From positions 1-64,000 of the IMG/VR virus record IMGVR_UViG_3300046804_001245: DNA of 64,000 nt; one strand, given 5' to 3'. The position numbers were made by a program, and so were the translations under genes. Of this stretch, positions 4,394-44,322 are shown in pieces (within the stretch, counting starts at the first letter, position 1; every line of letters starts with the position of its first letter). Below the pieces are notes generated by a model that worked only from the letters and a program-made list of their open reading frames with translations, did no database searches and was not told the DNA's origin. This stretch comes from a virus.

Positions 4394-5162
4394 TATTCCC
4401 CTAGTACAAGCATCAAGTGGATTAAGATCACTAATGACTGCATCTAAAGGTAAGGTATTTAAAGAAAGTTTGGTTGCTCAAATATCTGCCTATGTTTATT
4501 ATAATGCTCAAGTAGTGAGTAAACTATCATCAAACGCAGCATTTAAAAATAAATTTAGAGAAATTATATTTAATCAAATAGATAAAGACTTTGCAGAATT
4601 TGTAGACGCACAGGCTAGAGTAAAGCCAAAATCTTTGCATCATGTTTATGAATGGCGGCAGACTGGAGACCCATCAGCTAGACTATTTAAACTAAATAAA
4701 TTAAATACAGAGGGTCTTGGATTTTCTGTATCATATGAATTTATGCCTTCAAAAACATTTGCCTCAACAGAAGGTAATCGTAGACATGTATTTACTAAAA
4801 AAGCTTCTGTGATGGAAGCTGGAATGCCTCTTAAAATTGCTCCACGCCATTCTAAGCGCTTAGTATTTGAAACTAATGATTATACAGTCTTTATGCCAGA
4901 AGGCGCCTCTGTGACCGTTAAAAGCCCAGGCGGGGCTAGTGTAAGAAATTCATTTATGATGACTTATTCAAGATTCTTTAAATCTAATCTAGTTAATGCG
5001 TCCATAAAAAAATCTGGGTTCCAACAATTATTTAATAGATCTATGTCGAAGGCTCTTAAACTACCAGCCGAAATTAGAACAGTTAAATATTCATTTAGTC
5101 CTAATACTTTGTCTGTTCAAGCAGACGCAGCACTAGCATCAGCATTTGGAGGGGCGCTATGA
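4383..5162 (+). CDS. neck/tail completion virion protein
   Basis: Position in connector cluster; TTG start. Confidence 0.45.
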   Translation: MDYSIPLVQASSGLRSLMTASKGKVFKESLVAQISAYVYYNAQVVSKLSSNAAFKNKFREIIFNQIDKDFAEFVDAQARVKPKSLHHVYEWRQTGDPSARLFKLNKLNTEGLGFSVSYEFMPSKTFASTEGNRRHVFTKKASVMEAGMPLKIAPRHSKRLVFETNDYTVFMPEGASVTVKSPGGASVRNSFMMTYSRFFKSNLVNASIKKSGFQQLFNRSMSKALKLPAEIRTVKYSFSPNTLSVQADAALASAFGGAL

Positions 5163-24179: not shown

Positions 24180-24203
24180 CAATCTGAAATCAAATGCTAC
24201 AAT
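24176..24203 (+). promoter_or_regulatory. promoter TTGACA..TGCTACAAT opening the replication operon
   Basis: Consensus -35 and extended -10, followed by AAACTGC/GCAGTTT hairpin. Confidence 0.65.
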
Positions 24204-24252
24204 TCGTAGCATATAAACTGCTACCTGCAGTTTTTATTAATAAAAGGAAATA

Positions 24253-41872: not shown

Positions 41873-41943
41873 TGCTATAATATATGTGGGTCGCCGTCAG
41901 GGGCCCACATATTAATTTATTCGCTTGAAGGAGGAATAAAATG
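41873..41943 (+). promoter_or_regulatory. hsp20 promoter and ROSE-like structured 5'UTR
   Basis: TGCTATAAT; hairpin ATATGTGGG/CCCACATAT; TTTATTC-G-CTT/GAG-GAATAAA sequestering the SD. Confidence 0.65.
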
Positions 41944-42450
41944 GTTACAAACCTATCATTGGATCTTTTTAAAGATCCATTTTTTATTGGCTGGGATCGC
42001 CATATTAAAGATCTTGAAAAACTTATGGGTGCATCTACTAATTACCCGCCATACAATCTAAAACAAATTGGAGAAGACTCCTATGCTGTTGAAATTGCTT
42101 TGGCAGGATTTAGCAAAGAAGACATCACGGTAAAACAGGAAAAAAATGTTTTAACGATTACTGGTGAAAGCAAATCAGACACCAGTAGCACCTACATTCA
42201 CAGAGGCATTGGAGGTCGCAATTTTACAAGAACATTTTCTCTTGCAGAATATGTTGAAGTACATAGCGCTATAATGCTACAAGGAATGCTAATAGTTAAT
42301 TTAATCAAGAGGGTTCCAGAGGAAGCAAAACCAAAAGTGTTTTCAATTACTGATGGTGATGAATTAGCCGCAATTTCTGGCGCAGAGCAGGATGAAATGC
42401 TTGAGCAGGCAGAAAAAGAAGGCCTCTTGAAACGCAAGAAGAAGAAATAG
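41941..42450 (+). CDS. small heat shock protein Hsp20 (IbpA-like)
   Basis: NYPPYN, EIALAGF, YIHRGI..RNFTRTF, PEEAKPK. Confidence 0.93.
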   Translation: MVTNLSLDLFKDPFFIGWDRHIKDLEKLMGASTNYPPYNLKQIGEDSYAVEIALAGFSKEDITVKQEKNVLTITGESKSDTSSTYIHRGIGGRNFTRTFSLAEYVEVHSAIMLQGMLIVNLIKRVPEEAKPKVFSITDGDELAAISGAEQDEMLEQAEKEGLLKRKKKK

Positions 42451-42459
42451 TATAATGGT

Positions 42460-42563
42460 ATCCTGGGCATCGCAGCCTAGGATCGTCGGGGAAGACAGCG
42501 ACGAAAAATAACTGGTATAGTCCTGAGCATGACTGTAAAAAACTGCTCCTTAAATTTAGGAGA
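42460..42563 (+). ncRNA. structured leader RNA: two hairpins plus H-type pseudoknot
   Basis: After TTGAAA-N18-TATAAT; ATAGTC/GACTGT stem with loop GAGCA pairing to TGCTC. Confidence 0.5.
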
Positions 42564-42566
42564 TAA

Positions 42567-42749
42567 ATGCCAGCGTATGATTACAAGTGTGTGATATGTT
42601 CATACACAAAAGAAATACCTAAGCCAATAACGCAAGCTGATATGGTTGAGCTTTGTGAAAAATGTGGTGCTGCAATGGTTAAACAATACGGTACATTTGG
42701 CATTCAATTCAAGGGCACAGGCTTTTATAAAACAGACAACGCTAAATAA
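42567..42749 (+). CDS. FmdB-family zinc-ribbon protein
   Basis: MPAYDYKC..C...CEKCG...FKGTGFYKTD. Confidence 0.85.
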   Translation: MPAYDYKCVICSYTKEIPKPITQADMVELCEKCGAAMVKQYGTFGIQFKGTGFYKTDNAK

Positions 42750-42798
42750 TTTAATGTTATAATTAACTTGTTACAAAAGTTGTAACAAGGAGTTTAAG

Positions 42799-44322
42799 TT
42801 GACTGGAACTAAATTATGGAGACTATCATTAGCCGCAATTTTAATGTTTGGCTGGGTTTTTCTTGTTCCATCAAATGCATACGCAACTTGCGTTAACTAT
42901 TTACAGTCACAAACAATAGCAGCCGCCTACGAGGGCGACCCAGCCCCAACAGTCAATACGATGGATACATGCGGCGGCGACGATACATCTTATCAAATTC
43001 CAATAGCTACAACAATAACATTTGACGGTGTACAGTATTCAAATGTATACGCAACAACTAACTCAGTAATTACATTTGGACAGGCAGATAATACGTATTG
43101 GGATTATCCACAAACCCCGTCAATTTCTTTATATTCTATGGATTGGGTTACTGGTTGGTATGGCGCTCCAAATACTTTAGACATATTATATTCAGAAGGC
43201 GGATTTCAATTAAATATGCAGGCTATTCCATTTGGTCAATGGGGGGCTGAGCCAAGCACTATAAATATATTAGTAGCTATTACTAATACTGGAAGTCTTG
43301 CAGTATCATATAGTTATCAAGGACCAGAATATAATAATATGAGAACTGGCGTTAGGCTACATGATGGATCTATTGTGTCTTTAGAAGCATGGGGAGCAAC
43401 ACAGATACAGCCAGGATCTTCTACTCCAACACTAGAGCCAGAGCCAGTTGTTGTTGGACCAACACAAGAACAGTTAGCAGTACAAGAAGAAATGCGTGTT
43501 ACTGCAAATTTAATTGCTAATGCAATTGCTAATGCACAAAATGTAGAGCCTAATCCTGAACCATCGCCTGAGCAAACTCAACCAATCGATCCCACTCCAA
43601 CTCCAACACCTGAAACAACTTCTGAACCAGAACCAACTCCAAGTCCTGAGCCATCGCCCACTGTTGAGCCTTCACCAGAGCCTTCACCTCAGCCAACGGA
43701 TATAGATCCAACCCCAGAGCCAACACCTGAGCCATCTCCAATCGAACTTTCTCCAGAACCATCTCCAGATAATACCACAGAACCAGAAATTGTGGTAGTA
43801 GAGCCAGAAGTAATTACTCCAGAAGATCCACGTTTTCCAGAAGAAGATATTGTAATATTAGTTGAAGATAAAACAGAAAATACAGAAGTGTCTGAAGATA
43901 TGTCCAGGCTACTTGCCGATCTTACAAGCAGCCAAACTCTTGCAACATTAAGTCCAGAACAGAAAGCTGCAGTCGCTTCCACTCTTGGCATTAGGTCTGA
44001 AGAGGTTACGAAAGTAGTGGAATTAGCAAAAACAAATGAGGCAGTAGCAGAAGCATTACAGGAATTTGGAAATAGGGCAAATAAAAATATTGATGCCCCA
44101 ATGCCATATACATTAGCAGATGCTGTAACAGAGGTTCAAACAGAAAAATTTTTGGCGGATCCAATAGGAACATTAACAGATATAGATTTAGAAAAAGTTT
44201 TAGACCCATCAGAATGGGGTAAAGATATGACAGATGACCAAAGAGAAAAAGCACAGGAAGTTGTTATTCCTGTAATTATTGCAAGTAATATTGTGGCAGC
44301 AGCCATGACAAGGAGGAAATAA
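42799..44322 (+). CDS. secreted/membrane-anchored protein with Pro-Glu-Thr linker
   Basis: Signal peptide, beta-rich domain, (PEPS/PTP)n, C-terminal hydrophobic segment. Confidence 0.7.
   Translation: MTGTKLWRLSLAAILMFGWVFLVPSNAYATCVNYLQSQTIAAAYEGDPAPTVNTMDTCGGDDTSYQIPIATTITFDGVQYSNVYATTNSVITFGQADNTYWDYPQTPSISLYSMDWVTGWYGAPNTLDILYSEGGFQLNMQAIPFGQWGAEPSTINILVAITNTGSLAVSYSYQGPEYNNMRTGVRLHDGSIVSLEAWGATQIQPGSSTPTLEPEPVVVGPTQEQLAVQEEMRVTANLIANAIANAQNVEPNPEPSPEQTQPIDPTPTPTPETTSEPEPTPSPEPSPTVEPSPEPSPQPTDIDPTPEPTPEPSPIELSPEPSPDNTTEPEIVVVEPEVITPEDPRFPEEDIVILVEDKTENTEVSEDMSRLLADLTSSQTLATLSPEQKAAVASTLGIRSEEVTKVVELAKTNEAVAEALQEFGNRANKNIDAPMPYTLADAVTEVQTEKFLADPIGTLTDIDLEKVLDPSEWGKDMTDDQREKAQEVVIPVIIASNIVAAAMTRRK
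43546..43790 (+). repeat. PEPSP/PTP low-complexity coding repeats
   Basis: Visible in translation. Confidence 0.75.

Follow-up and report, generated by a model that had tools for sequence, protein, structure and literature searches.

A covarying H-type pseudoknot behind a phage hsp20 gene is one copy of a widespread RNA family absent from Rfam 15

The first result of this study is that an H-type pseudoknot at positions 42517-42548 is confirmed by sequence comparison in the window, that is, in the whole 64,000-nucleotide stretch of viral DNA that was analysed. The second is that, judged by alignment and pattern searches, the knot is one copy of a widespread, multi-phylum and apparently undescribed RNA family that is absent from Rfam 15. 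Our best explanation, to which we give an even chance, is that the knot would serve without a ligand as a general barrier or 3'-end cap between transcription units on phage messages.

The 64-kb window is the start of a viral record that is 106,882 bp long and has direct terminal repeats. The pseudoknot is held in a 116-nt intergenic gap between two genes of the + strand. The gene upstream of the gap is hsp20-like (41941..42450) and was identified by Pfam HSP20 (E=1.8e-15) and by PHROG 432 Hsp20 (E=1.1e-37). The gene downstream (42567..42749, with its ATG at 42567) encodes a 60-aa FmdB-like zinc-ribbon protein, which matched PHROG 1076 (FmdB-like) and, below the curated cut-off, Pfam Zn_ribbon_8 (E=3.3e-7). 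A large terminase gene and a tRNA-Met lie upstream of the locus and an endolysin gene lies downstream. No match to positions 41900-42800 was found among GenBank phage records using blastn. The next gap (42750-42801) has its own TGTTATAAT, then a perfect 10-pair hairpin, CUUGUUACAA/UUGUAACAAG, whose 3' arm continues into the AAGGAG SD sequence of a 507-aa secreted-looking gene with a TTG start at 42799. It has the appearance of a further short leader that masks its own SD.

All parts of the knot are on the + strand. The P1 hairpin (42517..42536) pairs AUAGUC (42517-42522) with GACUGU (42531-42536), including one U-G pair, and encloses the 8-nt loop CUGAGCAU. The 5' strand of the second helix, P2, is GAGCA (42525..42529). 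It lies within the P1 loop and is complementary to the 3' strand UGCUC (42544..42548), which was assigned from the family alignment and its covariation. The A-rich linker L3, AAAAAAC (42537..42543), corresponds to the family consensus NNAAAC, and in the alignment its AAA is invariant and its C nearly invariant. The base that follows UGCUC is A in 70% of family copies, pairing with the loop U, and C in the window; counting this U-A pair, P2 really comprises 5-6 pairs. The invariant unpaired bases of the family are C, U, A and AAAC.

P1 was examined for covariation using 128 aligned copies. Its three inner pairs are formed in every copy (100% of cells), and two inner positions are each represented by all four Watson-Crick pair types. 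The covariation score was 0.372 compared with 0.130 for shuffles, none of which reached 0.372 (0/500), and slid partners scored at most 0.052. P2 had to be examined separately because the family search pattern fixed its sequence. An unbiased scan accepted any hairpin with a CUNNNNAN loop followed by AAAC, and distinct matches with non-GAGY loops were evaluated. A fully complementary 4-nt tail was present in 32/154 variant loops, while ~2% is expected by chance. The pairs found include GGAC/GUCC, AAGC/GCUU, GGGU/ACCC, GAAC/GUUC, GGCC/GGCC, AGAC/GUCU and others. An earlier note on this DNA had drawn the pseudoknot with P1, P2 and an A-rich linker; its coordinates were right, and both helices show compensatory change.

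Family members were collected using a pattern made of the loop, a gap of 5-10 nt and AAACUGCUC, in which P1 was not required. An earlier scan of viral contigs with an exact 14-mer was too unspecific. At least 120 other viral contigs matched the pattern, frequently with 2-4 copies apiece. Among the matches listed, a P1 of 3-7 pairs was present in 147/147 viral matches, where chance would give 14%. The same pattern was found at 123 places in bacterial and archaeal assemblies, 94 (~90) of them with a P1 of at least 3 pairs; bacterial and archaeal matches with fewer than 3 pairs look like chance. The bacterial bearers comprise Saccharibacteria, Aminicenantes, Anaerolineae, Calothrix, Lachnospiraceae, Polynucleobacter and others.

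The family consensus is an H-type pseudoknot of ~30 nt. P1 has 4-6 freely covarying pairs closed by C-G, L1 is C or CU, P2 is (U)GAGCA : UGCUC(A), and one unpaired base stands between the helices. The A-rich linker NNAAAC is placed such that it would lie along P1. The window copy fits the family, with a C-G-closed P1, an 8-nt loop, an AAAC linker and a UGCUC complementary to GAGCA. Covariance model R1, built from the alignment, scored the window copy at 38.5 bits (E=2e-9). The model identified two copies in the genome, the one at 42517-42548 and a second at 64695-64731 on the - strand (L428:1501-1537), ~700 nt past the window end. The second copy has a UGAC/GUCA stem (36.8 bits) and is located behind an unrelated 140-aa gene (ending ..STYNSIAKYL), after a GC-rich 10-pair hairpin. 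Homologues of the 140-aa gene carry the knot in many other viral contigs. Two further R1 matches were rejected: 4810-4845 is inside a coding region, and 24190-24226 is an ordinary hairpin, behind which lies a terminator-like hairpin (ACUGC/GCAGU) with a U-tract.

Rfam 15 contains no match for the window copy, even at E up to 10. No Rfam match was obtained for the spacers of the hsp20 lineage described below, nor at the knot position in ten other knot-bearing loci. A literature search found no paper on such a phage pseudoknot family.

Relatives of the locus were identified by an Hsp20 protein search of viral contigs, which generated 102 relatives; 80 loci with 59-100% identity were kept. In 79 related phage loci the knot is found 3' of the hsp20 gene and of an invariant TATAAT. 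The spacer of this lineage is modular and consists of TATAAT, one to three hairpins and the knot. The knot is the sole module present in every lineage locus that reaches that far, while the hairpins H1, H2 and H3 come and go. The lineage knot has a variable P1, the loop CUGAGYAN, NNAAAC and UGCUC. Its P1 variants are GGAC/GUCC, ACAC/GUGU, AGUC/GACU, CCGC/GCGG and GCAC/GUGC, and P2 has co-changed in three relatives to GGGC/GCCC (L165), GGGU/GCCC (L163) and GGGC/GCCU. The gene behind the spacer encodes an FmdB-like zinc ribbon, an SNase homologue (PF00565) or a luciferase-like oxidoreductase (PF00296). Because the downstream gene is not constant, the element travels with the hsp20 end and not with FmdB. 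The earlier note had suggested covariation and gene context as a check on its reading. P1 and P2 covary, and the downstream gene varies.

The promoter reported previously, TTGAAA-N18-TATAAT, is present at 42427..42456 (+ strand), with TTGAAA at 42427-42432, an 18-nt spacer and TATAAT at 42451-42456, immediately 3' of the hsp20 stop codon. This promoter-like site has 11/12 consensus matches. TATAAT is invariant in 49/49 distinct intergenic sequences of relatives, with Hsp20 identity down to 59%, and lies right after the hsp20 stop codon or overlaps it. The -35 hexamer showed no conservation among the relatives. Hairpins start 4-9 nt 3' of TATAAT in the relatives.

The two hairpins assigned earlier to 42460-42483 and 42484-42503 were recovered both in the sequence and in the MFE fold. 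The nested fold of 42458-42580, which comprises both hairpins, P1 and a hairpin that pairs the SD of the FmdB-like gene, is -37.2 kcal/mol (z = -2.96 vs shuffles). Hairpin H2 (42460..42483, +) has 9 pairs including one G-U and a 6-nt loop, AUCGCA. A related GGGC..GCCC / CGGG..CCCG hairpin, followed by AGGAU, is found in most relatives and shows some compensatory change (pair 44-61 is G-C in 10 and A-U in 9); H2 is missing in some relatives (L198, L194). H1 has the form CUGC-ACCCC..GGGG-AGUC-GCAG in the hsp20 lineage, to which it is confined (e.g. L157:2980-3012), and has no Rfam match. Changes from C-G to U-A occur in its inner stem; the outer stem and the AGUC bulge do not vary.

Hairpin H3 (42484..42503, +) has a CGUCG/CGACG stem and a 10-nt loop, GGGAAGACAG, followed by AAAAAUAACUGG; in the lineage it reads GUCGGGGGAGACAGCGAC, then AAAUAACUG. 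H3 is conserved in sequence in 35 loci and is deleted in L126-L129, whose Hsp20 is 99% identical. Since the H3 stem is invariant, covariation is uninformative for it. Within 42484-42516 and its relatives (e.g. L155, L161, L132-L138) the 10-nt loop GGGGAGACAG is conserved, then AUUAAAUAACUG. The loop CAG and the downstream CUG could form a second small pseudoknot with an A-rich linker, a pairing beyond the reach of covariation analysis because nothing varies there. A nested-only consensus fold of the lineage spacer formed P2 instead of P1 and also an AGG:CCU helix; the AGG:CCU helix we regard as an artefact of forbidding pseudoknots.

The placement of the knot was determined in 146 distinct viral copies among the matches listed. 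Neighbouring genes were taken as ORFs of 60-80 aa or more without gene models, so the neighbour statistics reflect crude calling. The median distance from a co-directional stop codon to the start of P1 is 11 nt, and the distance is <=20 nt in 82/137 measurable copies among the matches listed. The upstream neighbour is a co-directional ORF in 104/122 copies among the matches listed. From the knot to the next co-directional start the distance is 20-252 nt (10th-90th percentile; 122 copies among the matches listed), and such a start is missing within 400 nt, or a convergent ORF is found instead, in 35/122 copies, likewise among the matches listed. In 17/146 copies among the matches listed a tRNA gene begins 5-14 nt behind the knot (examples are L233:6565-6664, L222, L241 and L304). 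In only 1/146 copies among the matches listed does a tRNA precede the knot, at a distance of 56 nt. Taken together, the close tie to the stop codon, the weak tie to what follows and the one-sided association with tRNAs suggest that the knot is part of the 3' end of the upstream message.

Other RNA elements are also found near family members. At L225:260-445 the knot ends one base before a full-length DUF2800 RNA (RF02960, E=2.7e-29), and the post-knot sequences of L303 and L398 resemble that of L225. Hammerhead-like cores, CUGAUGAG or CUGACGAG, were seen by eye after the knot in L350, L358, L206 and L203. Rfam identified one hammerhead only, in L358, ~200 nt upstream of the knot, and the hammerhead core heptamer is barely above chance, with 3 downstream and 5 upstream in 146 copies among the matches listed. 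In L311:1124-1301, L313, L319, L328, L348 and similar bacterial loci (Aminicenantes and others) a tiny ORF ends in ..PR[IV][AS]HC..GC....S. Its stop is the UGA within the knot loop CUGAGCA, so a ribosome would have to open P1 to terminate. In both inspected loci, L311 and L328, the tiny ORF adjoins a longer homologous gene.

We propose that the knot would fold alone, without a ligand, and form a mechanically stable bulkhead that separates transcription or translation units. Mainly, it would equip the message upstream, in this case hsp20, with a stable 3' end. The knot would halt 3'-to-5' exonucleases, whether the RNA ended by termination or was cut downstream at a tRNA, a ribozyme or an AU-rich site. 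For example, RNase P cutting at a downstream tRNA would produce an upstream RNA with the knot at its 3' end. The simplest mechanism would be a compact, coaxially stacked knot that 3'-to-5' exonucleases cannot unravel, and the knot may in addition insulate the folding and translation of the RNA downstream. The G-poor, U-rich tail behind the family knot fits this proposal, whereas the presence of a U-tract in only 17% of copies counts against it. Among the fallbacks of the earlier note was a nuclease-blocking element, which is close to what we now favor from the placement of the family. RNase J was undetected in 2/5 knot-bearing bacterial assemblies, which may be incomplete or whose knot contigs may be phage DNA; this argues weakly against the idea that the knot blocks only this 5'-to-3' enzyme.

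The window copy begins 66 nt after the hsp20 stop, with two hairpins between, which is typical spacing for the hsp20 lineage, and it ends 18 nt before the FmdB start codon. Because of this 66-nt/18-nt spacing and the invariant TATAAT upstream, the window copy could serve the downstream message. If transcripts start at the promoter-like site, the knot would sit in their 5' leader.

This leads to the first rival, a roadblock in the 5' leader, which we consider doubtful. Hairpins and knot in transcripts started from TATAAT would shield FmdB and the following genes from 5'-end-dependent decay, either by RNase E scanning or by RNase J exonuclease, making the element a bacterial counterpart of viral xrRNAs. 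The invariant TATAAT of the relatives, with hairpins 4-9 nt after it, is consistent with such transcripts, and L297 and L298 carry TGTATAAT ~10 nt before the knot. Bacterial RNase J1 is reported to be stopped by flaviviral xrRNAs as well (PMC5760640). However, most family copies lack an upstream promoter-like site, and the family knot is tied to the upstream stop codon, not to the downstream start. Where the knot stands right before a tRNA gene, RNase P would separate it from the tRNA. The failure to detect RNase J in two of the five host assemblies also counts against this rival.

The knot resembles the coremin-type Xrn1-resistant knots in architecture, a further point for the 5'-leader roadblock. 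Coremin begins with a 4-pair hairpin whose loop reads YGAD or YGNNAD; a spacer of 8-10 nt (GUUAAACUAC) follows, and then a second hairpin that is obligatory (PMC10520033). Coremin also stalls ribosomes (PMC10520033). In xrRNA_WCC the second stem, GAG:CUC, has 3 pairs and the first loop is a single nucleotide (PMC10520033, PMC10321173, PMC6546385). The phage knot shares with coremin xrRNA_C/xrRNA_WCC a hairpin of ~4 pairs; in both, the loop pairs with bases a little further downstream, and the A-rich spacer in between contains AAAC. The GAG:CUC stem and 1-nt first loop of xrRNA_WCC compare with (U)GAGCA:UGCUC(A) and a 1-2-nt first loop in the phage knot, and both kinds of knot occur in untranslated and intergenic regions. 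The differences are as follows. The 8-nt phage loop, CUGAGYAN, has G at position 3 and departs from YGAD/YGNNAD. Coremin needs a second hairpin directly downstream for Xrn1 resistance, while none is conserved in the phage knot family: the 35 nt downstream of the knot fold at -3.56 kcal/mol family-wide, little better than the -2.85 of shuffles, and the only downstream hairpin in the window is the SD hairpin, which overlaps P2 and is unconserved. Coremin has a 3-pair second stem, eukaryotic hosts and Xrn1 as its enzyme, and unlike coremin the phage knot is placed in a way that points to the 3' end of the upstream gene. Since the loop consensus fails and there is no conserved second hairpin, we classify the phage knot as a coremin look-alike and not as a member.

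The second rival is a transcription terminator or attenuator of the pseudoknot type, in which P2 closing beside a U-rich tract would release RNA polymerase. We judge this unlikely. Its position right after stop codons resembles that of a terminator, and promoter-like sites follow several copies (L234, L238, L223). Behind the P2 3' strand G is depleted and U is frequent; a U-tract occurs in 17% of copies compared with 3% of random windows, and in this subset the knot may act like a terminator. Nevertheless, 83% of copies have no clear U-tract, the tail in the window being CUUAAAUUU, and many copies are found 10-25 nt before the next SD and start codon in operon-like arrays. We know of no intrinsic terminator of the pseudoknot kind. 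The knot shares with intrinsic terminators and 3' stabiliser hairpins a location a few bases after the stop, a U-rich tail in a subset of copies and presumed protection from 3' exonucleases. An intrinsic terminator is a GC-rich hairpin, whereas the phage knot is a sequence-conserved pseudoknot of 4-6 plus 5-6 pairs, mostly without a U-tract. The window copy does not have the GC-rich hairpin with immediate U-tract that defines an intrinsic terminator.

A third rival, which we regard as quite improbable, is that a conserved protein binds the knot as a translational operator, or that the knot forms the 3' part of a stand-alone sRNA which starts at TATAAT. The invariant single-stranded bases (C, U, A and AAAC) would suit recognition by a protein, and the hsp20-lineage spacer does consist of a promoter-like start and a structured body of ~100 nt. 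A precedent is the leader of gene 32 in T4 and T2, where a compact pseudoknot with a 1-nt loop is a nucleation site. The gene 32 pseudoknot of the T-even phages is autoregulatory, specific to one gene and its own product. The two knots are alike in being compact and H-type in a phage leader, with a 1-nt first loop and an AU-rich run into the ribosome-binding site; they differ in that members of the phage knot family are located beside many unrelated genes and mostly at 3' ends. The phages and bacteria that carry the family belong to many phyla and share no neighbour gene, so any protein partner would need to be universal, and no candidate partner was identified.

The reading of the earlier note itself was a translational ON switch that senses a ligand or condition, in which formation of P2 frees the FmdB SD. 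We find this very improbable. In the window the underlying observation is true: CUCCU (42546-42550) is complementary to the SD AGGAG (42558-42562), and the resulting hairpin (42546..42562, +) shares CUC with P2, so that the two pairings are mutually exclusive as claimed. The SD hairpin is -6.1 kcal/mol and beats shuffles of the spacer (z=-2.1). P1 alone is -4.7 kcal/mol and the two together are -10.8 kcal/mol, while P2 stacking adds about -9.5 kcal/mol before any pseudoknot penalty, a crude estimate. Comparing -10.8 with that estimate, the knot and the SD hairpin in the window are roughly level, which is a point for the switch. The highly conserved unpaired bases of the loop and linker are also aptamer-like.

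Because the CUC of P2 always matches GAG in an SD, part of the complementarity is automatic. Of 43 distinct hsp20-lineage tails, 29 have a local fold in which three or more SD bases pair with the P2 3' region, but the SD hairpin is -4 kcal/mol or better in 15/43 distinct tails only. About one third of the relatives thus have an equivalent hairpin, for example CCUCUUU/AAAGAGG (L170) and GCUC/GAGC (L132), a point in favor of the switch. In the group with an AAGGAU SD, whose downstream genes are mostly FmdB-like, the hairpin is ~0. Real tails were compared with chimeras that join the P2 end and the SD end of different relatives, and the means were -2.72 and -2.71 kcal/mol, respectively (P = 0.47). 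Against spacer shuffles the median z of the tails was +0.22. In the 43 tails the anti-SD overlap is neither conserved nor co-evolving with the SD; lack of its conservation is an outcome that the earlier note had named as refuting its reading. The pairing between the P2 3' strand and the FmdB SD is a local property of the window sequence and not a conserved function.

Three results together remove the basis for a riboswitch or ON switch: the SD pairing is unconserved, the downstream gene changes, and the family is placed at gene ends. The genes that follow the knot are mutually unrelated, or there is none. Knots located after stops and before tRNA genes, promoters or convergent genes would make no sense as ligand-sensing leaders.

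Comparison with known riboswitches gave the same answer. The earlier note had likened the architecture to preQ1-I and SAM-II while doubting membership by sequence, and both halves of that statement agree with our searches: the topology is similar, and no Rfam model matched. With preQ1-I (RF00522), SAM-II and SAM-V the knot has only topology in common, namely a compact H-type fold of ~30-35 nt with an A-rich tail along the first helix. Those riboswitches are sometimes located next to an SD, like the window copy, but their loop and tail consensus differs, and in contrast to them the phage knot family is multi-copy and sits at gene ends. The preQ1-I, SAM-II and SAM-V covariance models gave no match at the gathering score or at E up to 10, and the knot matched no riboswitch family in Rfam 15. 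The phage knot has no link to queuosine or methionine genes; its neighbours in the window lineage are hsp20, FmdB-like, SNase and luciferase-like genes.

Three other functions were rejected. An hsp20-linked RNA thermometer, considered because some relatives have a U-rich anti-SD, was dismissed since the SD hairpin is not conserved. A self-cleaving ribozyme was judged unlikely because the knot adjoins tRNA genes and hammerhead-like cores and does not replace them; no Rfam ribozyme family matches the knot. A stimulator of readthrough or frameshifting was rejected because the distance from stop to knot is not in one frame and no extended frame follows.

For the annotation of this locus, the FmdB riboswitch reading is not supported and is corrected here. 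For phage RNA biology, a sequence-conserved knot of 30 nt that is found in many copies and many phyla and is not in Rfam 15 would count as a new and very common component of phage mRNA. Somewhat short of an even chance, in our estimate, is the claim that it is a ligand-free and protein-free mechanical block to exonucleases, perhaps also to ribosomes or RNA polymerase, and the first such class in bacterial viruses. If the exonuclease-block reading is true, phages would have arrived at it independently of the coremin knots of eukaryotic RNA viruses, and phages of many phyla would rely on it to determine where individual cistrons within long transcripts end and how long they last. If nucleases or polymerases are stopped by the knot, this would explain how the stability of single genes is controlled inside such transcripts. 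The knot would also offer synthetic biology a tiny portable insulator or stabiliser, and it would link phage RNA biology with the nuclease-resistant RNAs of eukaryotic viruses.
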